From a virus, in the IMG/VR virus record IMGVR_UViG_3300044911_003339, positions 1-64,000 of that record: a DNA stretch of 64,000 bases; one strand, 5' to 3'. Under the pieces are notes generated by a model. That model ran no database searches. It was given only the letters and a program-made list of their open reading frames with translations, and was not told the origin of the DNA. A program made the position numbers and the translations under genes. Positions 1-64,000 of this stretch are shown here, piece by piece; the first letter of the stretch is position 1; every line of letters starts with the position of its first letter.

Positions 1-618
1 AAGGAGCCCGCCAAGGCCCCCGAGAAGCCCGCCAAGCCCGCGAAGGCGGCCAAGGCTGCTCCGGCCCCGAAGAAGGCGGCCAAGGCCCCCGAGAAGCCCG
101 CGAAGGGCAAGGCCGAGGCCAAGCCCACGAAGCCCGCCAAGCCCGCGAAGAAGGCGAAGGGCAAGAAGGCAACGACGAACGGCAGCAAGGCGAAGCTCCC
201 CGCGAGCTACGACCTGACGCCGAATCCCAACGGCAAGGGCTCGGAGTTCGGCGGCAAGGGCTGGCCGACGGTCATCGCGGGCGGGAAGCTGAAGCCGCTC
301 CCGCGCCCGCGTGCTCTCTCGCCCGAGCAGATGAAGGAAGCGCTCGCTCGCGCGAAGATCGGCGCGCCCTTCGATCTGACGGTCGGGATGAAGGTCATCC
401 GTCACCGCCGCAGCGGCGAGGACGTGATCGTCGAGCTTCGGAAGGATGGATTCCACATGGACGGCGAGACCTACCCGTCGCTCACGGCGTGCGCGATGTG
501 GGCGGAGCGCCGCATGCGGTCGGGCAACGACTACTTCTCGGTCGAGGCGCACGACTGCGTGGAGATCAAGGGCAAGGGCGTGCCCGAGGGCAGCTACACG
601 CGCAAGAGCGCCGAGTGA
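1..618 (+). CDS. 5'-truncated histone H1-like (K/A/P-rich) protein with C-terminal DUF2924/RAMA-like domain
   Basis: Frame 1 is open from base 1: KEPAKAPEKPAKPAKAAK... repeats, then VELRKDGFHMDGETYPSLTACA..SGNDYF resembling the DUF2924/RAMA pattern (V..dGf...G..y.SLsa.A...nG..fF). Confidence 0.6.
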   Translation, partial: KEPAKAPEKPAKPAKAAKAAPAPKKAAKAPEKPAKGKAEAKPTKPAKPAKKAKGKKATTNGSKAKLPASYDLTPNPNGKGSEFGGKGWPTVIAGGKLKPLPRPRALSPEQMKEALARAKIGAPFDLTVGMKVIRHRRSGEDVIVELRKDGFHMDGETYPSLTACAMWAERRMRSGNDYFSVEAHDCVEIKGKGVPEGSYTRKSAE

Positions 619-633
619 TCGGCACGTGAACAG

Positions 634-666
634 GGCCACCTCGACTTCGGTCGGGGTGGCCTTTTT
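634..666 (+). terminator. Rho-independent terminator
   Basis: GGCCACCTCGAC-TTCG-GTCGGGGTGGCC stem with UUCG loop followed by TTTTT. Confidence 0.85.
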
Positions 667-680
667 CATTCCGTCCGCGT

Positions 681-690
681 AATCGGGTAA
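681..690 (+). promoter_or_regulatory. AATCGKGTAR motif copy (AATCGGGTAA)
   Basis: 9 nt before ATG 700, no SD; directly after a terminator. Confidence 0.75.
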
Positions 691-699
691 TGTCCTGGC

Positions 700-957
700 A
701 TGAAGGGCTGGAGCATCAACATCCACAGGCCAGACGACACGCGCGAGGTCGAGCGCGAGCAGCCCCCCGTGCTCGTGCTCGACGGCGGCGAGATCGTGTT
801 CGAGGTGTGGTTCTGGCACGCGCGCAGCGCTCGCTGGTTCGTGATGACGTGGCAGGACGACCCGAGCTTCGCAGCGCGAGGCATCGTCGCCTTCCGGCCC
901 ACGGACGTACCGTCGGCGCTTCGTGAACGCGTGGCCGCTCTCAGGAGCGCGGCGTAG
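700..957 (+). CDS. hypothetical protein
   Basis: ORF between motif and polymerase; stop overlaps polymerase start. Confidence 0.7.
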   Translation: MKGWSINIHRPDDTREVEREQPPVLVLDGGEIVFEVWFWHARSARWFVMTWQDDPSFAARGIVAFRPTDVPSALRERVAALRSAA

Positions 958-3185
958 TGGCCGAGCAAATGATCTTCGGAGGTGCGGACTTCGATCCGCA
1001 CCCGTGGCGCGACTCCGAGGAGATCCGCCTTCGTTCAGGCAGAGTGATTACGCTGCGCATGGTGCTCGTCCAGGACGAGAGCGCGCTGCGTGCGATGGAG
1101 ACCATCGCGTCCGTGCTTCCGTGGATCGCCTACGACTCGGAGACCAGCGGGCTCTTCCCGTGGCTCGGAGCGCGAATCTGCGGTCACGCGCTGGCCGGAT
1201 GGATCGACGCGAGGACGATGATCGCGTGGTACGTGCCCGTGCGTCACGTGGGGGCGATCAACTCGCAAGAGCGCCAGCTTGATCCGGCTGTCGTTGCTCC
1301 GGTGATCGATCGGATTCTGCGAAGCCCCGGACGCTGCGCGCTGCACCACGCGAAGTTCGACTGGTCCCAGCTTCGCGCCGATGGCGTCTCGTGGTCGAGC
1401 ATGCTCGTGCATGAGCGGGGTGGAATCGACTGCCGCGACTTCGACGACATCTCGCTCATGGCGTGCATCGCCGACGAGAACGAGCGCAGCTTCGCGCTGA
1501 AGACGCTGGGTCAGAAGTACATCACCGATCACGCTGCTGACGAGCAACACGTGGTCGTGGACTGGATGAAGGCCGACGCGAAATCGCTCGGCATGAAGTA
1601 CAAGCAGCGTGGCCGATCGGCGAAGGCCGACGAGGGAACGCTCGACGAAGCAGACGAGTCCGAAGAGGTCACCTACCTTCAGCGCTACGGGCACTCGCGC
1701 GTACCGCTGAAGCTGGAGGGGCGCTACGCGTGCCACGACGTGTTCCTCACGCTCGCGCTTCAGGAGCACTACCAATGGATTCGCTCTCGGTACGGACGCG
1801 TCTACGATCGCGAGCGCGCCATCGAGTGCGAGCTACACGAAATGGAGTGGAACGGGCTGCTCGCGGTGCCCGAGGAGATCCACAAGACGCACGACCTCAT
1901 GAAGCGCGAGGTCGCGCACTGGATCACGCGTGTGCGCTCGCTGATCGGAATCGACGATTGGAGCGCGACCGACGAGGAGATGCGCAAGCTCTTCTATGAG
2001 ACGTGGGGCTGTGAGGTCCCGAAGGAGAGCGAGGGCGGCAAGAAGAGCGTGGACAAGGAGACGCGCGCGGTGCTCGCGAGGAAGCACCCCGAGCGCGCGC
2101 CCGTGCTCATCGCGATCGATCGTCTCGCGAAGGCGCGCAAGCTGCGCTCGACCTACGCGAGCGGATTCCTGCGCTACGTCACGCCGTCGAATCGCATTCA
2201 CCCGACCTACAACCAACTGGAGGGGCGAGACGAGGGAGGATTCCCAGTCACCGGCCGCCTCTCGTCGTCGGACCCGAACATCCAGAACGTCGCGAAGAAG
2301 CCCTTCCACACGTTCGAGTGCGGCTGCAAGGCGTGCGTCGAGGAGTTCGGCAACGCGCCCGGTCCGAAGAAGACGATCAGCATCCGCCGCTACTTCGCGG
2401 TGCCGAAGGGATTCGTCCGCGCGTACATCGACTACTCGCAGATCGAGCTTCGCATCCTCGCGTGGTACTCCCAGGACCCGAAGCTCCTGGAGTGCTACGC
2501 GCAGAATCTCGACGTGCACGCGATGGTCGCCGACAACGTGACCGACGGCGATCGCGACATCGCGAAGCAGGTCAACTTCGGCAACTCGTATGGCATGACC
2601 GCGATCGGCCTCGCGCGCCGCGTCGTGTGGACCGACCCCGTGACGGGGAAGAAGAAGCGCTACTACGACGACCCCGAAGAGGCGATTCGTCGCGCCGAGA
2701 AGATCCTGGAGGCGTACTTCCAGTGGCTCACCGGAATCCCGATCTTCCGCGCGAACATGTCGATGGGCATGCGGAAGAACGGCTGCATGTTCGAGAACCC
2801 CTTCGGTCGTCCGCGGCGCATCCCCGAGATCGCGTGGAGCGGCGGAGCGAGGAATCGCGCCGAGCGGCAGATGATGTCGAGCATCATCTCCGGGACCGCG
2901 GCCGACTTGATGAAGGAGGGCCTCCTTCGCGTCGCTCGCTACCTCCGGCAGACGGGCGCGGGCATCCTTCGGCAGTCGATCCACGACGAGCTTGTGATCG
3001 ACCTCGTGATGAGGCCGGGCTGGGCGCAGCACCTCCGCAAGCTGCGTGACCTCATGATCGATTTCCCCATGTTCCCCCGCGGCGGAGTCCCCGTGCTCGC
3101 TTCAGCGGCGATCACGACGACGACGTGGGAGGAAAAGCGCGAGATCGAGCTTCTGGACGACGGTTCGTTCAAGCTCGCCGCGTAA
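957..3185 (+). CDS. polA: DNA polymerase family A with 3'-5' exonuclease
   Basis: ExoI YDSETSG, ExoII HHAKFD, ExoIII YACHD; TGRLSSSDPNIQN; motif A DYSQIELR; motif B KQVNFGNSYG; motif C IHDEL. Confidence 0.97.
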   Translation: MAEQMIFGGADFDPHPWRDSEEIRLRSGRVITLRMVLVQDESALRAMETIASVLPWIAYDSETSGLFPWLGARICGHALAGWIDARTMIAWYVPVRHVGAINSQERQLDPAVVAPVIDRILRSPGRCALHHAKFDWSQLRADGVSWSSMLVHERGGIDCRDFDDISLMACIADENERSFALKTLGQKYITDHAADEQHVVVDWMKADAKSLGMKYKQRGRSAKADEGTLDEADESEEVTYLQRYGHSRVPLKLEGRYACHDVFLTLALQEHYQWIRSRYGRVYDRERAIECELHEMEWNGLLAVPEEIHKTHDLMKREVAHWITRVRSLIGIDDWSATDEEMRKLFYETWGCEVPKESEGGKKSVDKETRAVLARKHPERAPVLIAIDRLAKARKLRSTYASGFLRYVTPSNRIHPTYNQLEGRDEGGFPVTGRLSSSDPNIQNVAKKPFHTFECGCKACVEEFGNAPGPKKTISIRRYFAVPKGFVRAYIDYSQIELRILAWYSQDPKLLECYAQNLDVHAMVADNVTDGDRDIAKQVNFGNSYGMTAIGLARRVVWTDPVTGKKKRYYDDPEEAIRRAEKILEAYFQWLTGIPIFRANMSMGMRKNGCMFENPFGRPRRIPEIAWSGGARNRAERQMMSSIISGTAADLMKEGLLRVARYLRQTGAGILRQSIHDELVIDLVMRPGWAQHLRKLRDLMIDFPMFPRGGVPVLASAAITTTTWEEKREIELLDDGSFKLAA

Positions 3186-3193
3186 TCGTGTAA
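3184..3193 (+). promoter_or_regulatory. AATCGTGTAA motif copy
   Basis: Overlaps polA TAA stop; 10 nt before AGGAGG SD of gene at 3217. Confidence 0.75.
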
Positions 3194-3216
3194 GAGAGGG
3201 TCTAGGAGGTCGCAGA

Positions 3217-3861
3217 ATGAGCAACCACGTCCGTGCGGCGGAGATCGTCCGTCGCCTGAAGCTGTCCATGCCGGTGCATCTCACGATGTCCGATCCGTTC
3301 ACGGGACAGCCCTACACGCTCGCGAAGGAGAACCTGCTCTCGCTGCTCGCGCTCGACGTGACCCGGCTCACGTTCGAGGGGCAGGTGGTGCCGGCGCTCC
3401 ACGCGGAGATCGCCCGAGCGCAGCGCGCGTGCGAGGGCGAAGCGATCAAGGCCGAGGTCGCCTACCGCAAGTGGAAGGCGCAGATCGCAGCGCAGACCCG
3501 CGCGCAGGACGGCCGCGTGACCGAGAAGATGGTCGAGGAATCGTACCGTCAGCGCGCGGAGTACGAGACCATGAGCGAAGCGCCCGAGCGCTGGAACCTT
3601 CTCGCTCGCCTCTTCGGCGACCTGAAGGATTCGGTGCGTCTGAAGGGCGAGATGATCAAGGCGCAGGAGCGCTCGCTCGACGCCGCGGCTCGCACCGAGC
3701 CGAGTGAGACGCTCGACCGCCTGGAGGAGTACGCACGCGAGAGCCTCGCGAGCGCCGCGCCGTCCTGGCAGCACATCGTCCCGAAGGACCCGCCCACACC
3801 CCCGCCCGCAGTCGTCGAAGAGCAGAAGTCGCGCGGTCGCAAGCCGCGAAAGGAGACGTGA
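3217..3861 (+). CDS. UvsY-like recombination mediator (putative)
   Basis: Helical coiled coil with RVTEKMVEESY...EY pattern; located between polymerase, SSB and RecA. Confidence 0.5.
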   Translation: MSNHVRAAEIVRRLKLSMPVHLTMSDPFTGQPYTLAKENLLSLLALDVTRLTFEGQVVPALHAEIARAQRACEGEAIKAEVAYRKWKAQIAAQTRAQDGRVTEKMVEESYRQRAEYETMSEAPERWNLLARLFGDLKDSVRLKGEMIKAQERSLDAAARTEPSETLDRLEEYARESLASAAPSWQHIVPKDPPTPPPAVVEEQKSRGRKPRKET

Positions 3862-3865
3862 AGAG

Positions 3866-5470: not shown

Positions 5471-5479
5471 TCTTCACGG

Positions 5480-5697: not shown

Positions 5698-5712
5698 CCC
5701 GCTGGAGGAATC

Positions 5713-12069: not shown

Positions 12070-12072
12070 ACC

Positions 12073-16108: not shown

Positions 16109-16116
16109 TCGTGTAA
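16107..16116 (+). promoter_or_regulatory. AATCGTGTAA motif copy
   Basis: 9 nt before ATG 16126. Confidence 0.75.
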
Positions 16117-27939: not shown

Positions 27940-28388
27940 GAATCTACGTTTCGACACGAGGCGACACGCTCGGGATGTCGCAGGCAAAGCGCGCAGCCGA
28001 GCTTCTGGAGGCGCACGGGCACGAGATCACCTACCGATGGTGGGAGACCATCGAGGCCCAGCACGCGGGAGGCACGACGAACGACGCGGACCTCACGCCC
28101 GAGCAGCGCGAGATGTTCGCTGAGGCCAACTTCGACGGCGTGCTGACCGCGCAGGTGCTCGTCTACATCGAGCCGCACGAGAAGAGCGAGGGCGCGGCGT
28201 GGGAGCTTGGCGTGGCGTGGGGCCTTCGCTACATGCTCCGCCGCGAGGACATCACCGCGCTGCCCGTGATCGTCGTCGGCGCTCGTCGGGGATTCATGTT
28301 CTCCGAGTTGAGCGATTTCCGCGTGCCCGAGATCGCGCTCGTGCCCAAGCTCCTCGACACGATGATGCTGCGCGCGAGGCGGCGATGA
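27936..28388 (+). CDS. nucleoside 2-deoxyribosyltransferase-like protein
   Basis: RIYVS...GHEITYRWW...DGVLTAQVLV...SEGAAWELGVAWG...PVIVVG. Confidence 0.75.
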   Translation: MRIYVSTRGDTLGMSQAKRAAELLEAHGHEITYRWWETIEAQHAGGTTNDADLTPEQREMFAEANFDGVLTAQVLVYIEPHEKSEGAAWELGVAWGLRYMLRREDITALPVIVVGARRGFMFSELSDFRVPEIALVPKLLDTMMLRARRR

Positions 28389-31138: not shown

Positions 31139-32872
31139 GTGACCACCACTACAGGGGAGTCCACGCACCGGGCCCGGAAGCCACGAATCGTCTCAGACGA
31201 TCGCGCGCTTCCGGGCTCTGTCGTTTTCTCGGCTGCATCGCCCGACCCGAGCATCGAGGTCTCGGCGGAGTTCGATCCGTCGGACCCGTACTGGCGCACC
31301 GTCTACGACGGCATGCTGCGCTCGTCGCTCGCGTTCTTCTCGAAAGAGATTCTCGGGCTGCACATCGGTCCGCACATGCACGCGTGGGACCGGATGATCG
31401 GGGAGCATCGGCGTCTCGCGGTCAACGCAGCGCGCGACCATTCGAAGAGCACGTTCTTCAGCTACGCGTTCCCGATCTGGCGCGCGTGGTCCGAGCCCGG
31501 AGTCGAAATCTACATCTTCTCGGCGACCATGGAGCAGGCCGTCGAGTTCATCGACATCATCATCTACGGCCGCGCGAACCTGCGCGGGATGATCGACATC
31601 CCCGAGCTTCAGCACCTCGTGCCGGACCTCGACGAAGTGCGCCGCAATCCGAAGGTGCGTCTCAACCGCGCCGACGTTCGATTCCGCAACGGCTCCCGCA
31701 TCCGCGCAGTCGGCTACGGCAAGGCGATTCGTGGCCGTCACCCGAAGTACATCATCCTCGACGATCCGCTGAACGACGAGGACATGTGGAGCGAGACGGT
31801 CCGTCGGAAGAACATCGAGTACTTCAAGAGCGCCATCGTGAACATGGCGACGCCCGAGGGTCAGGTGTGCGTCGTCGGGACGCCCTACCACGCGGCCGAC
31901 CTCTACGGCTGGCTCCGCAAGAATCCCGTCTACAAGTTCCGCCGCTTCCCTGGTCTCTTCCGCGACCGCCGCACGGGCGAGGAGCGCGCGCTCTTCCCGT
32001 GGCGATGGACCGTCCCCGCGCTGAAGGGGAAGCGCGACGAGATCGGCTCGGTCGCGTTCGCTCGCGAGATTCTCTGCGAGCCGGTCACGGACGACCTCTC
32101 GATCTTCCCGTCGCATCTCTTCCCGCCGCTGCGCGACGAGACCCTGCGACTCCGGCCGACGCTGGCCGAGCTTCGCGCACGCAGGATCACGACCTTCATG
32201 GGCGTGGACATCGCGCGCTCTGCGAGCGTGGGCGCGGACTACTTCGTGATCTTCGTGCTCGGCCGTGACCCTGCCGGCCAGCGCTACATCGTAGACATCA
32301 TCCGCAGCCGCGGCCTCACGTTCCGCAAGCAGTTGGAATCCATCGCGCTCGCCGCGCAGAAGTACGATCCTGCGCTGATCTACATCGAGAGCAACGCGAT
32401 GCAGCAGGTCTACACGGACGAGATGCGGCGAGCGACGGACCTGCCCGTGCGCGAGTTCGTGACGCTGGCGCAGAACAAGTACCCGCTCGACCGTGGCGTG
32501 CCTTCGCTGCGCATCATCCTGGAGAACGAGAAGCTCACGATTCCGTATGCGAACGACGTGTACACGCGCACGACGATCGACACGTGGGTCAGCGAGGCGA
32601 CGCAGTTCGGATTCGTCGATGGCAAGCTCCAAGGCATCGGCGAGCACGACGACACCGTGATGGCGTGGTGGTTCGCCGAAGAGGCCGCACGCTCGGGTGG
32701 CTTCTCGTTCGCGTTCGGCGACGAGGACGAGGCAGCCGACGAGGACGAGAACGAGACCGGAGAATCCTGGGAAGACGTGTTCCTCGGGGGCGAAGAGGAG
32801 CGCGAGGATTCGGGCGAAGATCGCGCGAAGGGTCCCGACGACCCTGGCGGGCTCTCAGCGTTCAACGAGTGA
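31139..32872 (+). CDS. terL: terminase large subunit
   Basis: AARDHSKST, IRGRHPKYIILDDP, VGTP, nuclease GVDIA and HDDTVMA; start uncertain. Confidence 0.95.
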   Translation: MTTTTGESTHRARKPRIVSDDRALPGSVVFSAASPDPSIEVSAEFDPSDPYWRTVYDGMLRSSLAFFSKEILGLHIGPHMHAWDRMIGEHRRLAVNAARDHSKSTFFSYAFPIWRAWSEPGVEIYIFSATMEQAVEFIDIIIYGRANLRGMIDIPELQHLVPDLDEVRRNPKVRLNRADVRFRNGSRIRAVGYGKAIRGRHPKYIILDDPLNDEDMWSETVRRKNIEYFKSAIVNMATPEGQVCVVGTPYHAADLYGWLRKNPVYKFRRFPGLFRDRRTGEERALFPWRWTVPALKGKRDEIGSVAFAREILCEPVTDDLSIFPSHLFPPLRDETLRLRPTLAELRARRITTFMGVDIARSASVGADYFVIFVLGRDPAGQRYIVDIIRSRGLTFRKQLESIALAAQKYDPALIYIESNAMQQVYTDEMRRATDLPVREFVTLAQNKYPLDRGVPSLRIILENEKLTIPYANDVYTRTTIDTWVSEATQFGFVDGKLQGIGEHDDTVMAWWFAEEAARSGGFSFAFGDEDEAADEDENETGESWEDVFLGGEEEREDSGEDRAKGPDDPGGLSAFNE

Positions 32873-51137: not shown

Positions 51138-51145
51138 GGTTCTCC

Positions 51146-51490: not shown

Positions 51491-54400
51491 GCCGGTTCGT
51501 GATTCCTGCGCTCCGCGCCGCACTGCCGGACGCCCTGGCGAAGTCGTTCCAGCGAGGCCCGCTCGCGCAGCACAAGTACCTGAAGCGAGAGCCCTACTTC
51601 GTCGGGGGCAAGCTGCGCTGGAGGTACTGGTACGCGAGCGACGAGCTTCGCAAGCAGGGCATGGTCGAGCACGACCCCGCGGGCGAGCACGAGCACCACC
51701 TGCTCGCGAACATCGCGGACATCTACGAGCACTTCAAGTCCGTGATCCGCTCGACTGCTGCGACCCCGACGACGGCGATCGAGGGAATCTTCCAGGCCGC
51801 GGTCGATGACCCGAAGGCGCAGCGCGTGCCACAGGTCGCGATGTCTCCGGCGTTCCAGGCGCAGCACGTTCAGCCGTTCATCGACGCAGAGGCGAAGGGA
51901 GCACCTCCCGAGGCGAGCCCGATCGTGCGCGTGCACGACGCGCTGGAGATGGTGCCCGACTACCTCCTGAAGCTCGTGATGGGCGGGACGAAGAACACGA
52001 AGCACCCCGGCTACAAGGGGCTCGGCCCGTACCCCGGTCTCTCCGCGCTCGTGATGAATCGCCAGGAGGACGAGGGAGCGGATTACGCGAACACCGCAGG
52101 TTGGGCGCATCCGAAGACGGGCGAGCTTCACCTGCTTGGCGGCGGCTCGGGCAAGCACGGCAGCGATTCGAGCTACTCCTTCCTCGACGGCGGCGACCCT
52201 GCCACGGCTCCCACGCCGACGGACTTCAACGACGCGAAGGTGCATCTCGAAAAGGTCGTCTGGCACGAGCTTGGGCACCACGTGCACTTCACGCTGGAGA
52301 CCGAGCAGCCGGACGTGATGGATTCGTGGAGGGACCTCTCGACGGGTCCGGGTCCGAAGCCGACGGCCTACGCGCACACGGCATGGTGGGAGGACTTCGC
52401 AGAATCCTTCTCGGGCTGCTTCGCGCTCCCGAAGGTGATGGCGATGCGCTGCCCCGAGCGATACGACTGGATGCGACAGCACGTCCTGAAGTCGCTGCCC
52501 GAGAGGTCCGCGCTCCTGAAGATGTCGGACGAGGAACTCGCGTGGTGGAACAAGAAGAAGACCACGCCGCCCGGCAAGCTGCTGATGCACCTGAAGTCGA
52601 ACGCGCCCGCGCGTCGCTTCGGTGCCTACTACAGCGACAAGGACCAGTTCTTCACGGTCGGCAAGGGAGGGCGCACGGTCTACCTGCGCTTCGGTCCGTC
52701 CGAGCCTGATCAGGAGGACGGCTGGACGCAGGTCCCCTCGACCATCGACCCGGAGACCGGGCTGCCGGTCTACGACGCCGCCTACGGTCCGCGCTTCAAG
52801 GTGCAGGGCAACCTGAAGGAGATGTACGACGAGCGCGGGAATCCGCTCGACGACTTCCAGGCGTTCCTCTACCTCGGACAAGACGACCCCGAGGTGCAGA
52901 AGTTCGTCGCCGACACGATGGAGAAGTACGTCGCGACGTTGCCTCCGAACTCGCCGCAGCCGACGGAGTACGACGCGGTGCAGTGGCTCGCCGCGAAGGG
53001 CGGCGACGAGGCGAAGGCTCTGGAGACGCGTCTGCTCTCGTACAAGATGTACACGTCGCTCGGCTACAAGCGGGAGTCGGAGAAGATTTCCGCGAAGGAA
53101 GCCCACACGACGGAGAAGGAGCGCAAGCGAGTCGAGAAGGAGCGCGCGAAGGGCGGCACGGGCTACCTCGATCGCCACGACTGGGTTCCGGTCGAGATTC
53201 CTCGCTCGGAGTTCGTTCAGAAGTCGGGCACCTTCAAGTTCGACAACGTGCGACCCGCGGAGTACCAGCCGTGGCAGGCCCGCGAGTGGGATCCCGTCAC
53301 GAAGACCTCGCGTGTGAAGACCGTCTACGACCCTGCGGCCGGCAAGGTGGTGCCCGTGCGCACGGCGACGGTCTACGAGCAGGAGAACCCCGACGGCACG
53401 ACGTTCCGTGTGACGGTCGCGGAGGGCGAGCCCTTCTCGATCGGACAGACCATCCTCGCGCCGGTCAGCGTGAAGCTGCCCGACGGTCGCATCTCGCAGG
53501 ACTGGCAGCCCTACAAGCTGTCCGTCGAAGACGGCGAGATGACCGTCACGAACCTCGCGAAGAAGTTCCGCGTCGATCCTGAGGCGCTCCTTCGTCAGAA
53601 TCACCGCTACATGCGCGGGCAGATCACGGACCCGATGCTCGCCGCGCTCCTCAACCCGAGCGGCGAGGTGATTCGCGATCAGTTCGATCTCATGCGCCTC
53701 ATGAAGCTCGCGGCCGAGCAGCCCACGCCGCCGACCGCGTGGGTCAGCGTCCGGGGCAAGACGGGCTCGATCGCTCACTTCAAGGTGAGCTTCGACGGCT
53801 CGGGCCCGCCGCGCGTCGAGGGTCGTCAGTGGGCCGCGAAGCTCGGGAAGGACCCGACCGAACCCATCCGCCTCGATCAGATTCTCGGGAAGGACGACGA
53901 ACTCATCGGCGTCGAGACCGTGCGCGAGCGGAAGGCGAAGGAGGTCAAGATCAAGCCGGGCGGCCTGGTGTGGGTCACCGTCAAGAATCACCTCGGCGAC
54001 GCGAAGCGCGTGATGGCGCGCTACATCGAGAAGAAGTCGTTCGAGGAGAAGGGCAAGAAGAAGAACGCCCACGTCGTCCAGGTGCTCCCCGGTCAGGGCA
54101 CGGGTCTGCCGAAGGACCGCGTGATCGTCACGCGCGTGAACAAGAGCGACGAGAGCCAGATCCCCGGCAAGCCGGAGATTCGTCGGCGCTTCGTCGAGCC
54201 GATGCAGAAGGACGTGCTGCTCTACGCCGACGAGGTGCGGGTCGGCTCGGGCGACCGAGACACGAGCGGCGTGATCAAGATCCTCCCGCCGAAGAACGGC
54301 TCGGTCACGAAGGCGCAACTCGCTGCGATTCCTGGCGTGCGCATCATCGGACTGGAGAAGGCACGGAACAAGAAGGGCGGAGCAGTCACGGAGGAGCTTC

Positions 54401-57400
54401 CCGAGGGCGTCGAGCTTGCCATCTCGCCCCGTGACCTCCCGGCCTTCCGGGAGTACCTCGGCGGCTTCGTGATGGACGAGCGCGTCTCGTCCATGATGGA
54501 CGAGCAGGCTGCCATCATCCGAGAGCGCGCGCTCCAGGTGACCGGAGAGGACTGGCCTCCCGCAGACCAGATCGTCGATGCGGACGGCAACGTGAATCCC
54601 AACGGAGTGCTGCGCGGCATGGTGACGGGCGCGATGGGCATGCAGCCCGGCGCGCATCGCATCGAGGCGCTTCAGCGCGTCGCGATGAACAACGGTCGCC
54701 TCATCGCTGCGCACTTCATGGGCACGGGCAAGACCGCGTTCTCGATCGCAGCCGCGCAGATGATGCGGAACCTCGAATCCCGCGAGCAGCCCGGCAAGCC
54801 GCACCCGAATCAGGTGAAGAAGAAGGTGCTCGCGCTCGTGCCGCTCAACACCGCGAACAACTACGCCGACGAGGTGGAGGTGTTCACCGGAAGGCCCGCA
54901 ACGATCATCGGCTCGGGCTCGCTCGCGGGCAGCGTGCGGATGTTCCGCATGCCGAAGGACCAGGGCCAGAAGAAGAACGAGACGCGCGAGGCGTTCATCG
55001 CGCGCTCGCTCGCCGCATGGAAGGCGGCGGTCAAGACCGACCCGACGCTGTGGAACCCGTGGGCAGACGATTCCCAGATGTGCGTCTGCCCCTACGAGTA
55101 CTTCCGCGACAACGAGGAGTTGATGCGGGCCACGGAGATGTTCGACGGGCTCGTCGTGGACGAGGCGCACAACATCGCACGTGAGAACGAACTCTCACGT
55201 GCGGTCGAGCGCTGGAATCCGAACATGAACATGTTCCTCATGCTCACCGGCACGCCCGTGACGAACACGCTCGACGTGCTCCCGCGTATGGCGAGCCTCG
55301 TGAGCGCGGGCAAGGTGAACCTCGGCACGAAGCAGGAGTTCACGGAGCGCTACCTCGTCGGCTCGGCTGTCGCGAAGGGCGAGGGCGCGAAGAATCCTCC
55401 GAAGACGGACCTCAACCCGCAGCGTGCCGGCGAACTGGCGGCGATCATGCGTCCGCTCATGCACATCGCGACGACGCAGGACGTGAAGGGCAAGACGATG
55501 CCCGCGGTGCTGCTCGACGAGAACAAGCCCGCGCACATGATCGGTCAGCAGGCGCGCATGTACCGACTCTCGATGGCGAAGTTCACGCCCGAGGAGAAGG
55601 CGGCGATCATCGAGAGCGGTGCGGTCGGCACCGACGAGTCGTACGCGCTCGATGACGAGGGTCGCCGCAAGATCGGTGTCGCTCGCTCGATCGCGAACTG
55701 CCTCGCCTACAAGGCACCCGACCAGCGTGAGAATCTCACGTACGAGTCGAAGAGCACCGAGGAGAAGAAGGGCAAGGTCATCGAGAAGACCGTCACCCGC
55801 GTCTTCTCGCTGCCCACGCACGCGATGATGACGACGAAGCGCCCCGAGGGCTGGGGCGGGAAGTGGCCGACGTTCTCGGAGGTCGAGAAGGGAATCGTCG
55901 AGCCGGGCTACTACAACGTGCTCTCGGAGTACTACGAGCGCCTCTTCGGCGTGACGTACGACTCCGTGGAGGGCAAGCCCATCGCGAAGGAGATCCTGGA
56001 CGGCGTGAAGCGCGGCGACTACGTGACGCCGAGCGGCGCGCCGTGGGGTACGGTCGTGAATCCCGATTACGGCCCAGAGGGCATGATCTGTCGCGGCACG
56101 CTCGACCCGGTGACGGGCAAGATCGAGCCGCTGCGGAAGGAGATCGTCGAGAACGGGCAGAAGCGCGTCGTCGAGGTCAAGCCGGGCACGCGCTTCATCC
56201 GCGATCCGAACTCCAAGGCGGCGGGCCTCTTCTACCACGAGGATGACTGGAACTTCACCGGCCGCTTCATCGACTCGGGCGAGGGAGGCGGCGGCGAGGG
56301 TGGAGGCGAGGACGATCCGTCCGACCCGAAGCCCGCGTCTGCCGGCAAGCAGGCCCCGAAGGACCCCTCGCTCTCCATCCAGCGTTCGACGAAGCGCCGG
56401 AAGGAGCGAGAGATGTTCGACCTCGCGGTCACGGCGGGCAACGCGAAGAGCGACGAACTGGAGCAGTACATCCACAACGCGCTTCGCGACGACAACCTCG
56501 GGCCCGATCAGCAGTTCATCCTCTTCGGGAATCGCATCGGCTCTTCCTTCCGCACGATGGAGAGCAAGCTCCGCACGATGGGATTCCAGGACGTGAACGA
56601 AGCGCTCGGGCACCCCGAGTGGAGCACGGCCGAGGACAAGGCGATGATGCCTCGGAAGTTCTTCGTGACGTACGCGGGCAAGGGAGCAACGCTCGGCGAC
56701 CGCGACATCAACTCGGAAATCTTCCGACAGAAGCTCGACCAGTTCGGCCACAAGACCGGGCAGTCGATGTTCGTCTTCCGCACGCTCAACGGCGGCACGA
56801 AGAAGCCACCCAAGGTCGGCGAGATGCGCGAGGGCTGGAGCCGTGGCCAGCGGAAGCGCATCGCCGACGCTCTCGCGGAGCCCACGCGCAAGACGGCCGA
56901 GGGCAAGCCTGCGGGCCTGGAGGTGCCGATGCGCGTGACGAGCGTCGAGGTCGATGGTCGCATCGAGCAGCGGTACCTCTACGAGTCGGACATGAAGCCG
57001 AAGGATCGCGCAGAGTTCCTCCGGCTGGAGAAGGAGCGCCGCGGCGCGGACAAGGCGCGCAAGCAGGCGATCGACGGCGAGATGCGCGCGCTCGCCGACC
57101 GCTACTGGAGCGACCGGATTCCTCTGTCCGATCACTACCAGTACGTGCTGAACAACACGCAGATCATGGTGGCGACCGACGCCGCGAACGTCGGCCTCAA
57201 CTGGCCTGCTCCCAAGCTCGTCATGTACGACTCGCTCTTCTCGCCGATGGACGAGTGGCAGCGCATGACGCGTGCGGCCCGCATGCTCGACGCAGCGGTC
57301 ACCGGACCCGCGAAGAAGTACGTCGAGAAGATCGACGCGAAGCTCTCCGAGATGGAGAAGCAGACCGGGCTGAAGGAGTACGGACCAGAATCTTCCCTTC

Positions 57401-58122: not shown

Positions 58123-58123
58123 G

Positions 58124-58656: not shown

Positions 58657-58716
58657 CGCTGCTGCCGGATTCGTGACACACCATGGACCGTGGCCTGCTC
58701 CCGTGTGGAGCACGAG

Positions 58717-58752
58717 AGGCGACCGAAGGAGAAATCCATCGGTCGCCTTTTT
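58717..58752 (+). terminator. terminator-like hairpin upstream of protease gene
   Basis: AGGCGACCGA-A-GGA-GAAA-TCC-A-TCGGTCGCCT followed by TTTT. Confidence 0.7.
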
Positions 58753-58782
58753 CGTTCTCGGGTCGCAGATCGCGCGGACGCG

Positions 58783-59538
58783 ATGAAGACCTCTCCCCAG
58801 CGCAAGTTCAGCTTCGACTTCGATGTCGAGGTGTTCGAGAAGGCGAGCCCCGAAGGAACGGAGCGCCGCATCGGCGGAATCGTGTCCACCGATCACCTCG
58901 ATCGTCAGAGCGAGGTGCTGCTTCAGGAGGGCCTGGACTTCTCGCCCTTCCTGAAGGGCGGGTGGTTCAACGACAACCACGAGTCCACGACGGACAGCGT
59001 GATCGGCTACCCGACGGCGGCCGAGCTTCGTCACCTGCCGGACGGCAGGAAGGGCTGGTACGTCGAGGGCTACCTCCTGAAGACCGACCGCGCGAATCGG
59101 ATCTGGGACCTCGCGACCGAGCTTCAGCGCTCGGGCTCGGGGCGCAAGCTCGGATTCTCGGTCGAGGGCTCGATCGCCGAGCGCGACCCGGACGACCCGA
59201 AGAAGGTCCGCAAGGCCGTCGTGCGCGAGGTCGCGATCACGAAGTGCCCGGTCAACACGAACACCGCGCTGCACGTGCTGGCGAAGTCGCTGGCCGTTGG
59301 TGCGGGTGGGCCGCCCTCAGGGCCGACGGGTGACGCGAGCGTGCTCGCGCCCGAGGCTCTGGAGGGCGTGAGTCCCGCGCGCCCGAGTCCGAAGGACCCG
59401 AAGAAGCGCCGCAAGGTCAAGCAGCGGATGAACAAGTCCGAGGCTGTGGATTTCTTGCTGTCGGTTCGGCCTGGGATGTCTCGGGCGCTCGCAGAGCGCG
59501 TGGTCGAGTACGCGATTCGGTGGCACCCGGCCGCCTGA
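58783..59538 (+). CDS. prohead protease (HK97/herpes-like fold)
   Basis: IGGIVST...DRQSE...GLDF...GWFNDNH...IGYP...LGFSVEG...VAITKCPVN. Confidence 0.92.
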   Translation: MKTSPQRKFSFDFDVEVFEKASPEGTERRIGGIVSTDHLDRQSEVLLQEGLDFSPFLKGGWFNDNHESTTDSVIGYPTAAELRHLPDGRKGWYVEGYLLKTDRANRIWDLATELQRSGSGRKLGFSVEGSIAERDPDDPKKVRKAVVREVAITKCPVNTNTALHVLAKSLAVGAGGPPSGPTGDASVLAPEALEGVSPARPSPKDPKKRRKVKQRMNKSEAVDFLLSVRPGMSRALAERVVEYAIRWHPAA

Positions 59539-59553
59539 AGAGGAGAAGAGGAC

Positions 59554-60588
59554 ATGAGCGGAAGCAACGTCGAAGTGGACGTGAGCGGTCTGGAGGCCAG
59601 CCTGAACGATCTCGTGAAGGCAGCCGACGCGACCGATCTCGTCAAGGGCAAGGGCGCAGGCGGTTCGGTGAACCGGGACTACTCGGGTCACATGGACGAG
59701 CGCGGCAAGGTCGGCGGAGGTGCCGCGGGCAGCGGCGACATCGGCGGCATCGACGACATGATGATCGGCAAGATGGGCGAGACCGCGATGTCGGCCCTCG
59801 CGTCGGCGGGCTTCAGCGCGCCGCAGATCGCCGCCTTCATGTCGGGCAAGGCCGCGGACGAGGACGAGGACGAGAGCGACGACGAGGACGAGAGCGACGA
59901 CGAGGACATGAGCGGTCAGGCCGACGGCTCGTTCGTCTCGCACAACCGCCCCGAGCCGACCGGCAAGATGGCTCCTCCGATGCCGCCCTTCCGCGGCAAG
60001 GCGAAGAAGAGCGGCGCGGGCGAGGGCGAGCCCCTCAACAAGTCGCTCGACATGCTCCGGCAGGACCCGGACATCGGCGACGCGATCGACGTGTCGGCGT
60101 ACCTGGAGGCCATGACCGCGCGTGTCGCCGAGCAGATCGACGGGCTCGCGAAGGGCGTCCACGGCGCGCGCACGGAGCAGGCGCAGGTCAACCGCGCGAT
60201 GGCCGCGGCACTCTGGCAGACCGGCAAGCTGGTGAAGAGCCAGCAGGCGATCATCCAGGCGCTCGGCGAGCGTCTCGGAATCGTCGAGGCGACGCCGGTC
60301 CCGCCGAAGGGCGTCCAGGACCCGCGTCGGGCTGCCGCGCTCGCGAAGGGATTCGCGGGCGAGGCGGGCGGGCCGGGCTCGCGTCAGATGAAGAAGAGCG
60401 AGATCCTCGGAGCGCTCTCCTACATGACGCTGGAGAAGGGCATCCGCGAGATCAACGGCCAGAAGACCTCCGAGGTCATCTCGCTGTTCGAGGGCGGCAA
60501 CGTGATCGCCCCCGAGACCATCCAGGCGGTCGAGAGCTTCCTCCGCCAGAACCCGAGCGACGCCGCGAAGGCGCTCTCGTACCGCTGA
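59554..60588 (+). CDS. capsid scaffold-like protein
   Basis: Between protease and capsid; acidic DE tract; multiple LVKA/LVKG/LNKS/LAKG/LVKS sites. Confidence 0.7.
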   Translation: MSGSNVEVDVSGLEASLNDLVKAADATDLVKGKGAGGSVNRDYSGHMDERGKVGGGAAGSGDIGGIDDMMIGKMGETAMSALASAGFSAPQIAAFMSGKAADEDEDESDDEDESDDEDMSGQADGSFVSHNRPEPTGKMAPPMPPFRGKAKKSGAGEGEPLNKSLDMLRQDPDIGDAIDVSAYLEAMTARVAEQIDGLAKGVHGARTEQAQVNRAMAAALWQTGKLVKSQQAIIQALGERLGIVEATPVPPKGVQDPRRAAALAKGFAGEAGGPGSRQMKKSEILGALSYMTLEKGIREINGQKTSEVISLFEGGNVIAPETIQAVESFLRQNPSDAAKALSYR

Positions 60589-60658
60589 ACAACGTCTGGG
60601 CTCGCTCGGAAGTGATTCCGAGTGAATCCACCGAACCGAAGAGAGAAAGACCAGGATC

Positions 60659-62083
60659 ATGAACACCACCCCGTTCGTCAGCGCACGCGACTACGGCGGC
60701 TTCGGGTCGAGCAGCCCCGACGAGATCGCCGCACTCAGGAAGGCCCTCTACGCGGGCCAGGACGTGAACGCCCCCGCGGTCGTTCCCGGCGAGGGCTTCC
60801 CGCTCCGCACCGAATCTCTGGAGGCGAGCTTGAAGGTGCTCACCTACGAGATGGACGAGATCAAGCTGTTCAAGACGATCAGCAAGATTCCCGCGACGAA
60901 CACCGTCGAGGAGTTCAACCGTCTCCTGAGCTACGGCCGCGGCGGCAGCCGACGCTTCAACCTCGGCTGGATGACCGAGGGCGATCTTCCCGAGGAGGAG
61001 GACTCGACCTACGAGCGCATCACGATGCAGATCAAGTTCCTCGGCGTGGTCGGCCGCGTGACCCACGTCGCGAACACGATCCGCGCCGCGCACGGCAACG
61101 TGATCGCGATGGAGACGCAGAACAAGACGATGGAACTGCTGAAGCAGTTGGAGAACGCGCTGTTCTTCGGCGATTCCTCGCTCATCCCCGAGCAGATCGA
61201 CGGCCTCGAACGCCTCATCACCGCGGGTGCTCCGAACAACGTCATCGACCTCCGCGGTGGACCGATCACCGAGGAGATCATGAACGACTCGCTGCTCCAG
61301 ATCCGCGACAACTTCGGCATGGCGACCGACTGCTACCTCGGCACGGGCCCGTTCGCGGACCTCGCGAAGCAGGTCTACGACCGTCAGCGCTTCGGCGTCG
61401 CTCCGGCTCCGGGCGTGCTCGGCGCGCAGGTGACGGCGTTCCAGGGCCAGCACGGCAAGGTGTCGATGCACGACCACGTGTTCATCACGGAGGGTCAGAC
61501 GGCGCTCGCTGCGGGCCTCGGCTCGACCACGAAGCGCGCGGCGGCTCCGACCATCACCGTCGCTCCCGCGGCCGGTGCGGCGGCGGGCTCGCTCTTCACC
61601 GCGGCCGACGCGGGCACCTACATCTACCGCGTGGTGGCGGGCAATCGCTTCGGCCTCAGCGTCCCCGTGAACTCGGCGGGCGTGGCGGTCGTCGCGGGCG
61701 ACGGCGTGACCTTCACGGTCGCGGACGGCGGCCCCCCGAGCGCGACCTTCTACGAAATCTACCGCACGACCCCCGGAGGCTCGGCGGCAGATGCTCGTCT
61801 CATGACGCGCGTCGCGCGCACGGGTGCCACGCAGGTCATCACCGACCTCAACGCGGACATCCCCGGCACGTCGAAGGGCTTCATGCTCATGCAGAACGCG
61901 CGCTCGTTCTCGTGGGCGCAGCTTCTCCCGATGACGCGCATCCCGCTCGCCGCGATCGACACGTCGATCCGCTGGGCGCAGGTGCTCTACGGCGGCGTGA
62001 AGATGTACACGCCCGCGAAGAACATCGTGTTCAAGAACATCGGTCGCCTGCCCGGCTCGCTCCCGTCGTCGGTCGTCCCCTGA
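60659..62083 (+). CDS. major capsid protein (SPO1/Twort-like) with FN3-like insertion
   Basis: LRKALYAG, LRTESLE..LK, IPATNTVEEF, EGDLP...STYER...KFLG, LENALFFGDS, NVIDLRG, QLLPMTRIPLA. Confidence 0.93.
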   Translation: MNTTPFVSARDYGGFGSSSPDEIAALRKALYAGQDVNAPAVVPGEGFPLRTESLEASLKVLTYEMDEIKLFKTISKIPATNTVEEFNRLLSYGRGGSRRFNLGWMTEGDLPEEEDSTYERITMQIKFLGVVGRVTHVANTIRAAHGNVIAMETQNKTMELLKQLENALFFGDSSLIPEQIDGLERLITAGAPNNVIDLRGGPITEEIMNDSLLQIRDNFGMATDCYLGTGPFADLAKQVYDRQRFGVAPAPGVLGAQVTAFQGQHGKVSMHDHVFITEGQTALAAGLGSTTKRAAAPTITVAPAAGAAAGSLFTAADAGTYIYRVVAGNRFGLSVPVNSAGVAVVAGDGVTFTVADGGPPSATFYEIYRTTPGGSAADARLMTRVARTGATQVITDLNADIPGTSKGFMLMQNARSFSWAQLLPMTRIPLAAIDTSIRWAQVLYGGVKMYTPAKNIVFKNIGRLPGSLPSSVVP

Positions 62084-62110
62084 CGTGAGCGCCGTGAGCG
62101 TGTAGGCTCG

Positions 62111-62149
62111 GAAGGCGAGCGGGCTACGGCTCGCTCGCCTTTCACGTTT
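62111..62149 (+). terminator. terminator after capsid gene
   Basis: AAGGCGAGCGGGC-TACG-GCTCGCTCGCCTT followed by TCACGTTT. Confidence 0.75.
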
Positions 62150-62165
62150 GTAGGAGGATTTCCCC

Positions 62166-62621
62166 ATGGCCCGAATCCAGAACAAGAATCTCCCGTGGAC
62201 CCAGCTTCGCCTGCGGAGCGGCAAGGTCGTCCAGACCGACGGCGACGGCGTGCTCTCGGACATCTCCGACGAGGACGCGAAGATGCTCGGCGCGACCCCC
62301 GGCTGGCGCGTGGCAGGCGCGATCGGCGAGGTCCGGTCCGACGGCATCGCCACGGTCTCCAGGCGGGCTCCCGTGCCCCCGAAGGTCGAGGAGGAGCCTC
62401 CCGCCGCCAAGGTCGAGCCGAAGGCTCCCGAGAGCCCGGAGCAGGCCGCGAGCGAGACCGAGGAGAGCGAGGAGGCCGAAGGGCCGGACATCGACGGGCT
62501 CCGGTCGAAGGCCGAGGCTCTGCGCATCGCCGAGGAGTACGGCGTGGAGGGGCTGACCGAGGACATGAAGCTCGCCGACATGAAGGCGAAGCTGAACGCG
62601 GCCCTCTACCCCGAGGGCTGA
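62166..62621 (+). CDS. post-capsid hypothetical protein with helix-extended-helix-like C-terminus
   Basis: AGGAGG SD; SKAEALRIAEEYGVEG...KLADM. Confidence 0.6.
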   Translation: MARIQNKNLPWTQLRLRSGKVVQTDGDGVLSDISDEDAKMLGATPGWRVAGAIGEVRSDGIATVSRRAPVPPKVEEEPPAAKVEPKAPESPEQAASETEESEEAEGPDIDGLRSKAEALRIAEEYGVEGLTEDMKLADMKAKLNAALYPEG

Positions 62622-62662
62622 ACTCGCCGCAGAACTGATCTGCGCGGAAACGGAGGATTCTC

Positions 62663-63016
62663 ATGGCGGCTCGTGGCGACGATCTCCTCGACTTCTACAG
62701 GCGGGATCCCGACAAGGCGATCGTGCTCGCGCTGACGAACGTCTCCGCGCAGATCCCCGCGCCCCTGCCTCCCGGCAGGTACTTGCTCATCCTGCGGGCA
62801 GTCGCAGGCGTGTGGGCCTGGTTCCGGGCGGAGCCCTACGAGGACGGAAGCACCGTGACCGTGGTGGCCGCGCAGGGAATCCCACTTTCCATCGACGGTC
62901 TTCAGACCATCGAGATCAACGTGAGGAAGGGTCACAACGACCGCATCGCCGCCATCACCGAGGCCGGTGTCGGCACGCTCTACATCGTGCCTCTCGCGCG
63001 GCCCGCGCGCCGCTGA
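62663..63016 (+). CDS. putative structural protein
   Basis: GGAGG SD; beta-rich. Confidence 0.55.
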   Translation: MAARGDDLLDFYRRDPDKAIVLALTNVSAQIPAPLPPGRYLLILRAVAGVWAWFRAEPYEDGSTVTVVAAQGIPLSIDGLQTIEINVRKGHNDRIAAITEAGVGTLYIVPLARPARR

Positions 63017-63026
63017 AGGAGTCCCC

Positions 63027-63680
63027 ATGCCGCTCCCGCGCATGCGCACTGACGGTGCGCAGCCCATCACGAACGATGGCACCGTGCCGATGGCGGCTCC
63101 GCTGTCTCTCGGCGGGAATCGTATCGAGCGCCTGGGGCCTCCGACGCAGCCCGACGATGCGGCTCGACTGGCGGACGTGAGCGGGGGCGGGGCTGCGGAT
63201 GAGGTGACCTACGACGATTCCGCGGTCTCGCCTCCACTGGGAGCGGCCGATGTGCAGGGCGCGCTCGACGCCGTGAAGGGAGACCTCGCAGATCGCGCAA
63301 CGAGCAGCGCGAGCACCTACGCACCAACCATCACGCCCGTCACGCCCGGCACGCTGGTCGCTGCTGCGGCAGCGAACTTCAGGTACTTCCGAATCGGCTC
63401 GATGGTTCACGTCATGGGCACGCTCAACGTGACCCCTGCCTCGCTGGCGGGCAACAACCAGATCGACATCTCGCTGCCTGTCGCAACCGCGAGCGTCGCT
63501 GACCTCACGGGCGTCGCAGCAGGCTCGTCTCTCCCCGGATCGAGCTTCGACGTGATGTTCGTCCACGGGCCTGTGGTCGGCTCGGGAGGCAACGCTCGCG
63601 TCTACTTCTCGCTCGCCATCGCGAACGCTCCGGGCACGCAGTTCAAGCTGCCCGTGAGCTTCTCCTACACCGTCTCGTGA
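63027..63680 (+). CDS. fibre-like structural protein
   Basis: DGTVPMAAPLSLGGNRI..LG.PT..DDAA; DVQGALD; YFRIGSMVHV...ISLPV. Confidence 0.65.
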   Translation: MPLPRMRTDGAQPITNDGTVPMAAPLSLGGNRIERLGPPTQPDDAARLADVSGGGAADEVTYDDSAVSPPLGAADVQGALDAVKGDLADRATSSASTYAPTITPVTPGTLVAAAAANFRYFRIGSMVHVMGTLNVTPASLAGNNQIDISLPVATASVADLTGVAAGSSLPGSSFDVMFVHGPVVGSGGNARVYFSLAIANAPGTQFKLPVSFSYTVS

Positions 63681-63705
63681 TCAACCCTCTTGCCGTGAGG
63701 TTTCA

Positions 63706-64000
63706 GTGGACGCAGCGACGAGCACGCTCATCACACAAGGTGGAATCTTCGGAGCGTTCTTCGTCTTCGTCACCATCCCTCTCGCGCTCTACGCGCGCAC
63801 GCTCGCTCAACGTCTCAACGAGGTGCAGGCCCAGCGCGTAGCAGATGCCCGTGAGGTGCGAGACACGCTTCTCGCCGTCACGGCTGAGTTCTCTGGGGCC
63901 TTGCGAGAGCAGGTCCGCACTTCGACTGAAGTGAAGGGGGTCTACGAGCGCACCGTAGCGACCCTCGAACGCGTGGAGAAGAGAATCGAGACGCTGGAAG
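63706..64000 (+). CDS. 3'-truncated holin-like membrane protein
   Basis: LITQGGIFGAFFVFVTIPLALY TM followed by coiled coil (BhlA-like layout). Confidence 0.5.
   Translation, partial: MDAATSTLITQGGIFGAFFVFVTIPLALYARTLAQRLNEVQAQRVADAREVRDTLLAVTAEFSGALREQVRTSTEVKGVYERTVATLERVEKRIETLE

Follow-up and report, generated by a model that had tools for sequence, protein, structure and literature searches.

An evenly spaced excess of GAWTC sites in a 105-kb phage genome and its possible role as a genome tag

The pentanucleotide GAWTC (W, A or T) is strongly over-represented in the virus record IMGVR_UViG_3300044911_003339, a single contig of 105,161 bp, the first 64 kb of which make up the window studied here (positions 1 to 64,000; G+C 66.9%). 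The whole genome carries 461 GAWTC sites, about one per 230 bp, composed of 230 GAATC and 231 GATTC. The sister word GASTC (S, G or C) was found 158 times, 91 of them in the window. The data indicate positive selection for GAWTC as a regularly spread tag of duplex DNA in this phage lineage, and with a confidence that stays a little short of even, we interpret it as a self tag of the methylation type. Features referred to in the text are listed in Table 1.

Base composition predicts 106 GAWTC sites in the genome (4.3-fold excess), and dinucleotide composition predicts 232 (2.0-fold excess). The local counts that had drawn attention to the word in a preliminary description of the window are correct, with 15 GAWTC and 4 GASTC in positions 1-3200 and 15 and 2, respectively, in 51500-54600, and so is its expectation of about 3 GAWTC per 3.2 kb under a mononucleotide model. 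Genes were called in-house with a codon-model gene caller. It placed 112 genes on the + strand and 1 on the other, 113 in all, and 94% of the genome is covered by them; the outcome does not depend on exact gene starts, and the excess was reproduced with independently re-called genes. Three codon-aware null models were applied to the genome, with 200 shuffles each. Synonymous shuffling within genes gives 174 ± 10 sites (z 28), synonymous shuffling that keeps every dinucleotide gives 303 ± 9 (z 18), and codon permutation gives 150 ± 9.5 (z 33). Under each of the three, GAWTC ranks first among the 512 strand-symmetric 5-mers. For the window alone, 288 sites compare with 102.5 ± 7.9 (z 23) and 187 ± 7.9 (z 13). 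Instead of being lost under codon- and dinucleotide-aware nulls, the excess thus persists with z of 18-33, which bears out the earlier proposal of selection on GAWTC itself and not of a codon artefact.

The excess extends through all codon phases (89 sites observed vs 31 expected, 131 vs 60, and 196 vs 37). Intergenic DNA, amounting to 6.2% of the genome, holds 40 sites, at a density at least equal to that in coding sequences. A longer motif or a repeat family underneath GAWTC was considered and rejected, as the flanks of the sites are not conserved and no 6-mer or 7-mer at the top of the ranking is anything but a variant of NGAWTC. A Markov model of maximal order (order 3) returns an observed-to-expected ratio (O/E) of 1.01, but this result is circular because AATC/GATT and GAAT/ATTC occur almost only inside the site.

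Codon usage discloses how the sites are built. Construction of many of them from otherwise rare codons, suggested in the preliminary description, was confirmed: 92 of the 117 AAT codons and 104 of the 123 ATT codons are located inside G-AAT-C and G-ATT-C, in total 196 of 240. Between G and C, AAT accounts for 58% of Asn and ATT for 57% of Ile codons, compared with about 1% or less in most other contexts. The share of GGA among Gly codons is 45% before ATC and 36% before TTC, while it is 13% elsewhere. Similarly, GAA and GAT reach 56% and 53% before TCN, and 15% and 18% elsewhere, and CGA is, like GGA, GAA and GAT, recruited where it completes GAWTC. Sites are present at 418 of the 1210 synonymously attainable coding positions (35%), compared with roughly 11% in the synonymous null.

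One-letter neighbours of GAWTC are depleted, as observed for GASTC in phase 0 (76 vs 134) and GATCC in phase 2 (79 vs 139). GAACC is also depleted where a synonymous switch gives GAWTC, and GATCC in phase 0 is not. Because the depletion is confined to phases that can be switched to GAWTC, selection for GAWTC drains the neighbours, which are not avoided for themselves, and the per-phase counts rule out neighbour-word avoidance as the driver of the excess. All genes of at least 250 aa contain GAWTC sites. Their density is second- and third-lowest among large genes (1.9-2.1/kb; median 4.3) in the two genes with the highest G+C at third codon positions (GC3), as would be expected if sites are gained at the expense of codon optimality.

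The sites are distributed more evenly than expected by chance. The coefficient of variation (CV) of spacing is 0.78 in the genome and 0.79 in the window, compared with 0.99 ± 0.045 for random placement and a minimum of 0.807 in 5000 trials. In 2-kb bins, the variance-to-mean ratio of 0.43 is the lowest among 140 control 5-mers of similar abundance (median 1.21). Compared with random subsets of attainable positions, the CV is 0.96 vs 1.14 ± 0.055, and close pairs number 46 vs 77 ± 6.6 (P < 2e-4 for both). Attainable positions are realised in 20% of cases if another site lies within 25 bp, a proportion that rises to 62% if there is none within 400 bp.

To assess conservation, 86 kb were aligned to two close relatives from the same metagenome (G001 and G002, ~ 95% nucleotide identity), and divergence inside and outside of sites was compared by Fisher tests. 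In this alignment, 326 of 370 GAWTC sites are common to the close relatives. Third-position A diverges in 6.2% of cases in sites and in 32.4% outside (P 3e-13), and T in 15.1% and 33.1% (P 1e-7). For G the values are 0% and 6.0% (P 2e-4), and for C 1.8% and 6.7% (P 0.04). GAWTC sites are under purifying selection, which protects all five positions and extends beyond the methylatable adenine. Gain of compensatory sites near lost ones was not significant, at low power (10 of 44 within 200 bp vs 6.5 expected, P 0.12).

GAWTC enrichment is common to G001 and G002 only. It is absent from the relatives G003-G009, the terminases of which are 58-71% identical, and where GAWTC occurs at 0.56-1.6 times the base-composition expectation, with a spacing CV of 0.94-1.72. 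The same ranges apply to five complete or nearly complete relatives (terminases 58-65% identical, G+C 59-70%). Limitation of the trait to one lineage indicates that the enrichment is a recent, lineage-specific acquisition. GAWTC density is 0.45 per kb in G004 and 0.72 per kb in G009. G004, a genome of the same metagenome, shows depletion of GAWTC without depletion of GASTC, and so do several phage contigs that are unrelated; restriction or methylation systems reading GAWTC therefore exist in these habitats. The 37 GAWTC sites of G004 (L165-L169) are clustered (CV 1.72) and leave the stretch from 56.9 to 78.8 kb empty. An intermediate relative was found on a 107,317-bp Logan contig, with a terminase 73% and a methylase 53% identical (P0123, P0005), and the methylases of P0002 and P0004 are 79% and 67% identical.

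That the excess is an artefact, produced by codon usage, by dinucleotide bias or by neighbour-word avoidance, can hardly be upheld as an explanation. It may draw on the order-3 Markov ratio and on high-GC phages, which often show 1.3-3 times more GAWTC than a mononucleotide model expects. The former is circular, and a compositional origin is excluded by the three codon-aware nulls, the per-phase tests, conservation of sites and their spacing, as well as by relatives of equal G+C without the excess.

Neutral drive would be another way to accumulate sites. Short-patch repair linked to the methylase could convert near-cognate words to GAWTC with no benefit for the phage, as in the model proposed by Elhai for HIP1, a highly iterated palindrome of cyanobacteria (PMC4390886). 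Filling of about one third of attainable positions in each frame class, in spite of differing baseline codon frequencies, is in accordance with such biased repair or mutation. Site creation, however, requires changes at word positions 1, 2, 3 and 4, including both transitions and transversions, and this variety means that no single lesion or repair bias accounts for the excess. Interference between neighbours and under-dispersion are unexpected from a site-autonomous drive, and the lowest density in genes with the highest GC3, probably the most codon-optimised ones, resembles a balance of costs and benefits. In addition, no Vsr- or MutH-like gene was detected among ~ 55 proteins scanned. We regard this explanation as quite improbable.

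The equality of GAATC and GATTC, despite nearly all genes residing on one strand, suggests symmetric reading of the duplex. The reader would then be a dimeric protein of the restriction-modification type. Under the tag interpretation, the genome would be kept "covered", with one GAWTC copy in nearly every 200-400 bp. The most likely chemistry would be N6-adenine methylation of G-A-W-T-C, performed either by the orphan CcrM-like methylase of the phage or by a CcrM-type enzyme of the host, and a dense and regular mark could label the DNA as self, protect it, or provide points from which a DNA-binding protein nucleates.

The same strand bias brings in a signal at the level of RNA, since with nearly all genes on one strand every GAWTC site is also present in mRNA. 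GAWUC could in that case be, for example, a cleavage or processing site of an RNase E-like enzyme in long same-strand transcripts. Enterobacterial RNase E prefers RN↓WUU, and GA↓WU resembles this pattern. Against it, GAAUC and GAUUC would have to be selected to the same extent on a strand richer in A than in T, the symmetry of the palindrome would be accidental, and sites in intergenic DNA are at least as dense as in genes. An RNA signal is therefore a very unlikely explanation.

The methylase in question is encoded in the window (Table 1). The preliminary description had taken this open reading frame (ORF) for an orphan methyltransferase and had pointed to beta-class enzymes that recognise GANTC. 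Its match to PF01555 (beta-class N6/N4 DNA methyltransferases), well above the cut-off of 26.7 bits, and the order of motifs agree with the beta class. DPPY (residues 30-33) precedes LDPFMGRGTTG (FxGxG-type, residues 197-207), which is the beta-class permutation, and both motifs are conserved in homologues. DPPY favours adenine. The protein also matches PHROG 67, "DNA methyltransferase" (E 6e-33). Its nearest solved relative is CcrM (6pbd), detected both in sequence (phmmer, E 1e-16) and in structure, where 6pbd_A is the top Foldseek match (E 2.4e-19, 23% identity). The AlphaFold2 (AF2) model has a predicted local distance difference test (pLDDT) value of 81, with residues 250-324 of low confidence or disordered. 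Its score of 71.3 bits with the NCBIfam CcrM equivalog NF050803 is below the cut-off of 830. No nuclease family match that would indicate a partner nuclease was obtained for the ORFs flanking the methylase in Pfam and PHROGs. Genes for hypermodification were not recognised among ~ 55 larger proteins compared with Pfam, NCBIfam and PHROGs, many ORFs being without any family. The methylase is a reasonable candidate for the writer of a GAWTC mark. CcrM homologues with experimentally shown GAWTC specificity are documented in SAR11 and Rhizobiales, but enzymes for GAWTC and for GANTC are not told apart by any sequence rule, and changing a single pocket residue thought to separate GANTC from GAWTC recognition left specificity unshifted (PMC8919816).

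Several observations weigh against GAWTC as a methylation-type self tag. A plain methyl mark alone does not explain the benefit of regular coverage. The methylase is only ~ 23% identical to CcrM and is devoid of the ~ 80-aa C-terminal DNA-binding domain of that enzyme. Its homologues with 38-45% identity are present in G006 and G009, which are without enrichment, G009 being even GAWTC-depleted; G004, G007 and G008 have no methylase homologue. Genomes that methylate GANTC or GAWTC normally under-represent the word, with log2 O/E of about -1.1 to -1.7 (PMC8919816), and the word is depleted in two Rhizobium/Sinorhizobium phages that carry the closest cultured methylase homologues. Finally, about 50 lineage-specific ORFs without assigned function could encode a different reader.

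A survey of 80 IMG/VR contigs with methylase homologues revealed mostly GANTC depletion, often stronger for GASTC, and enrichment in none of them. Among unrelated contigs with distant homologues, L047 and L079 each have 1 GAWTC vs 33 GASTC, L014 has none of either word in 15.9 kb, and L005, L006 and L046 lose GASTC selectively. Depletions that are specific for one of the sub-motifs indicate that both GAWTC- and GASTC-specific pressures act on phages. The depletion limited to GAWTC in L047 and L079, and in a stretch of L092 (1 vs 30), can be also called upon in favour of exploitation of a host factor, as it shows that systems reading GAWTC are present in such hosts. In that case, a GANTC- or GAWTC-binding protein of the host would be titrated or recruited by the phage genome, which would be its sponge or landing pad; candidates are a defence nuclease, a CcrM-type methylase and a GcrA-type methyl-reader. 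The closest cellular homologues of the methylase (at most 43% identity) are mostly from Alphaproteobacteria, which is in line with this proposal. A sponge, however, needs no even spacing, and since GASTC is not enriched, a GANTC reader such as canonical CcrM or GcrA fits poorly. Host-factor exploitation is accordingly considered unlikely.

The second protein of interest lies at the contig ends. The preliminary description had assigned positions 1-618 to an H1-like DUF2924 protein. This protein is not free-standing; the positions represent the final third of a fusion ORF of ~ 617 aa. A near-identical IMG/VR contig, L001, links the two ends of the record, and in the relative G001 the fusion is encoded in a single open frame of 623 aa. 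The protein is comprised of a sigma-70 region-2-like N-terminus, a Cys-rich segment, a Lys/Ala/Pro (H1-like) repeat that is ~ 200 aa long, and a globular domain at the C-terminus. The match of the N-terminus to Sigma70_r2 (21.8 bits) is below the cut-off of 24, while 13 of 48 homologues match it, the best at 2e-10; sigma-70 region 4 was not detected in the fusion protein. The Cys-rich segment (ORF at genome 103734-105161, L004:8734-10161) has the conserved consensus P-x-C-H ... C-x-x-C-x-D-K-F-x-C-L and a weak profile match to WhiB7 (E 0.27), and could be a metal or Fe-S cluster site.

For the C-terminal domain, 40 of the 48 homologues match DUF2924 at E <= 0.01 (best 1e-9). Its AF2 model has a pLDDT of 87, and a Foldseek search with it gave no match at E <= 0.001. 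In a VIA-align comparison with 48,161 chains, the best match is weak and corresponds to CcrM residues 273-348 (Z 4.1, root-mean-square deviation (rmsd) 4.2, 71 aligned), followed by the also weak match to the RAMA domain of mouse MPND (7YDT; Z 3.4, rmsd 3.5, 64 aligned). The preliminary description had proposed the H1-like DUF2924 protein as the one that binds marked GAWTC, and the domain had been suspected to be RAMA-like. The two top structural matches, both RAMA-type, agree with this guess in spite of their weak Z, and sequence comparisons do not: Pfam RAMA (PF18755) has no match at E <= 1 in the genome translated in all six frames, where a Caulobacter control was matched, and none among the 48 fusion homologues. 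A profile search with the DUF2924 alignment against PDB sequences returned only low-complexity noise. Reading of N6-methyladenine (m6A) by RAMA is itself disputed and unconfirmed (PMC11037411). Complex prediction for the methylase and the DUF2924-like domain gave a score of 0.01, which is evidence neither way. The fusion architecture is kept across the phage family, including an orthologue in the non-enriched G004.

These features bear on a binding-site array that is independent of methylation. In this explanation, which we hold to be possible but rather doubtful, a protein would be nucleated every ~ 230 bp for compaction, protection or recruitment of RNA polymerase, the sigma-like/H1-like/RAMA-like fusion or a lineage-specific ORF being candidates. 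Interference of spacing over 100-400 bp fits proteins that spread from nucleation points, and the fusion possesses both the long Lys/Ala/Pro repeat and a C-terminal domain whose best structural match is the DNA-contacting C-terminal domain of CcrM. Promoter-like copies that begin with GAATC (5 of 13) or TAATC (8 of 13) point in the same direction. Conversely, relatives without enrichment have conserved the fusion as well, the structural match reaches a weak Z of about 4, and DUF2924 has no known DNA-binding specificity. An extended version, a "chromatin code", would combine the two proteins into a CcrM-like module that has been split, one of them providing the catalytic core and the other the RAMA-like domain for DNA binding. 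Putatively m6A-marked GAWTC would nucleate the fusion every ~ 230 bp. Coating and compaction by the fusion would be restricted to phage DNA, to which it would also recruit the RNA polymerase of the host. This version has a low probability in our estimate; if true, it would represent a virus-encoded system for self-DNA identity and transcription capture.

Table 1. Positions of GAWTC sites and associated features in the window
Feature	Position in window	Strand	Description
GAWTC array	1..64000	.	288 sites (143 GAATC, 145 GATTC), ~ 1/222 bp; all codon phases and intergenic
3' end of ~ 617-aa ORF (fusion protein)	1..618	+	ORF start at genome 103734; crosses contig ends (bridged by L001)
C-terminal DUF2924-like domain, 141 aa	193..615	+	DUF2924 (PF11149) 23 bits, below cut-off 31.2
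Orphan beta-class N6-adenine-type DNA methyltransferase, 324 aa	13264..14238	+	PF01555 70.1 bits
Two genes	59554..62083	+	highest GC3 in genome (0.92)

The + strand contains the promoter-like word, [G/T]AATCGKGTAR, 13 times, with 0.09 expected in the window, and most of these copies closely precede the start of a gene. Copies in the window start at 681, 3184, 10053, 16107, 19671, 21513, 22231, 23822, 23998, 26119 and 27208, and those outside of it at genome 88624 and 100087. The preliminary description had noted GAATC in some of the promoter copies. This is correct for the 5 that start with GAATC, while the other 8 start with TAATC, which makes the link to GAWTC marginal. A separate excess of TAATC (73 vs 42-52) is due to the promoter-like word.

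The gene content of the genome is phage-like. Replication and repair functions include a family-A DNA polymerase, RecA, a fused SbcD/SbcC-like protein and RuvC, and helicases (DnaB-like included), a primase and a CobS/CobT-like pair were also recognised. Lysis and packaging are represented by an SLT lysozyme and the large terminase (31139-32872). The terminase has many relatives, which form a large family, are uncultured and have genome sizes of ~ 100-118 kb. Its identity to the terminases encoded by Bacteroides phages and by ~ 100-kb phage contigs from the human gut is ~ 31%; no close cultured phage was found in the search for relatives. The replication set suggests one more explanation, in which GAWTC is a site for a replication or recombination enzyme (a primase start, or a nicking or recombination hotspot) needed regularly on both strands of a genome poor in A/T words. 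Phage primases recognise words of 3-5 nt, as is the case in T7. Regular coverage, a palindrome that serves both strands equally, and the phage's own primase, DnaB-like helicase, RecA, SbcCD-like protein and RuvC are all compatible with it. These enzymes, however, have 40-52% identical orthologues in the GAWTC-poor G004 and G009, so that their specificity would have to be new, and we see little probability for such a role.

Because L001 spans the contig ends, the record can be considered a complete genome, either permuted or terminally redundant. The ends share ~ 192 bp (window 1-192 and genome 104970-105161). The join sits within the Lys/Ala/Pro repeat of the sigma-like ORF, and for this reason the "terminal repeat" may be in part an internal repeat of the gene. 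Among Leu codons, CTC (1616) is favoured over CTG (731), and NCG codons are preferred for Ala, Pro, Thr and Ser; this combination is unusual at 67% G+C and may help to find the host. The two genes at 59554..62083 probably code for major virion proteins, and the second of them (60659-62083) encodes the most conserved protein, 70-75% identical to those of relatives. An ORF of 137 aa at 27975-28388 shows a match to nucleoside 2-deoxyribosyltransferase below the threshold (27.7 bits; cut-off 28.8) and has a 53% identical homologue in G009 only. It could bear on nucleotide or base metabolism.

Alongside the GAWTC excess, avoidance of palindromes was observed. AATT and TTAA are both absent from the 105 kb, where 35 and about 3, respectively, are expected under an order-2 Markov model. 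Compared with synonymous-shuffle means, GTCGAC (0 vs 67), GAGCTC (0 vs 60), CTCGAG (0 vs 79) and GGCGCC (1 vs 100) are missing or nearly so, as is the non-palindromic CTCAAG/CTTGAG (0 vs 59), and CTAG has 5 occurrences. In G004, GAGCTC is likewise absent (0 vs 76), and CAGCTC/GAGCTG is found twice as often as expected (255 vs 131, z 17.5).

Phages normally purge short palindromes that can be read by restriction systems. The genome described here purges at least six such words, yet it does the reverse for GAWTC and pays for this in rare codons. In the open-access literature, we found no earlier description of a positively selected and evenly spaced restriction-type palindrome in a phage. Genome-wide tags have so far been known from cellular genomes, as HIP1 and uptake sequences, and their functions are debated. 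The phage offers a simpler system in which the function of a tag can be addressed, having 105 kb, few candidate readers and one clonable methylase. Should the tag prove to be a methyl mark, selection could act for methylation motifs as well as against them. If true, this would also bear on motif statistics used to infer restriction pressure and links between phages and hosts.

Among known systems, CcrM and its GAWTC-specific homologues share with the phage the word itself, and the phage enzyme is likewise a beta-class DPPY orphan with 6PBD as the nearest structure. It differs in its ~ 23% identity, in 71 bits vs the cut-off of 830, and in being without the C-terminal RAMA-type domain; moreover, the word is under-represented in methylating genomes and over-represented in the phage. 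RAMA domains (PF18755; MPND 7YDT; the CcrM C-terminal domain) are the best structural matches of the C-terminal domain of the fusion, but with Z of only 3.4-4.1 and no match in sequence. Uptake sequences of Pasteurellaceae (USS, uptake signal sequence) and Neisseriaceae (DUS, DNA uptake sequence), together with methylated RAATTY in Campylobacter, are marks for DNA uptake. They are similar to GAWTC in being short words, abundant and evenly spread, so that any fragment bears a "self" label. They differ in being non-palindromic words of 9-12 nt or a methyl mark, read by the cellular competence machinery, and we know of no use that a lytic-type phage would have for uptake. Avoidance of restriction sites concerns the same class of words, GAWTC being a target of TfiI and HinfI. 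The phage avoids GTCGAC, GAGCTC, CTCGAG, GGCGCC, AATT and TTAA, and for GAWTC the sign is opposite.

The closest known phenomenon, by analogy, appears to be HIP1 (GCGATCGC), described in cyanobacteria together with other highly iterated palindromes and the orphan methylases DmtA and DmtC; its proposed functions are nucleoid organisation and methylation-dependent recognition or uptake of DNA (PMC4390886, PMC5861425, PMC13756078). Unlike HIP1, GAWTC is a 5-mer with a degenerate centre and resides in a virus instead of a cell. Its excess is about 3-fold over the codon-aware null, compared with 15-300-fold for HIP1, and its regularity is local (interference below ~ 400 bp), while HIP1 shows a period of 10-90 kb. 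The phage methylase is only a candidate partner of GAWTC, and the trait is only as old as one species-level phage lineage. The two nevertheless have in common a restriction-type palindrome that far exceeds codon-aware expectation, whether inside genes, in any frame, or between them. In both, the sites are better conserved among related genomes than neutral change would allow, their spacing is not random, and the genome also encodes an orphan DNA methylase.

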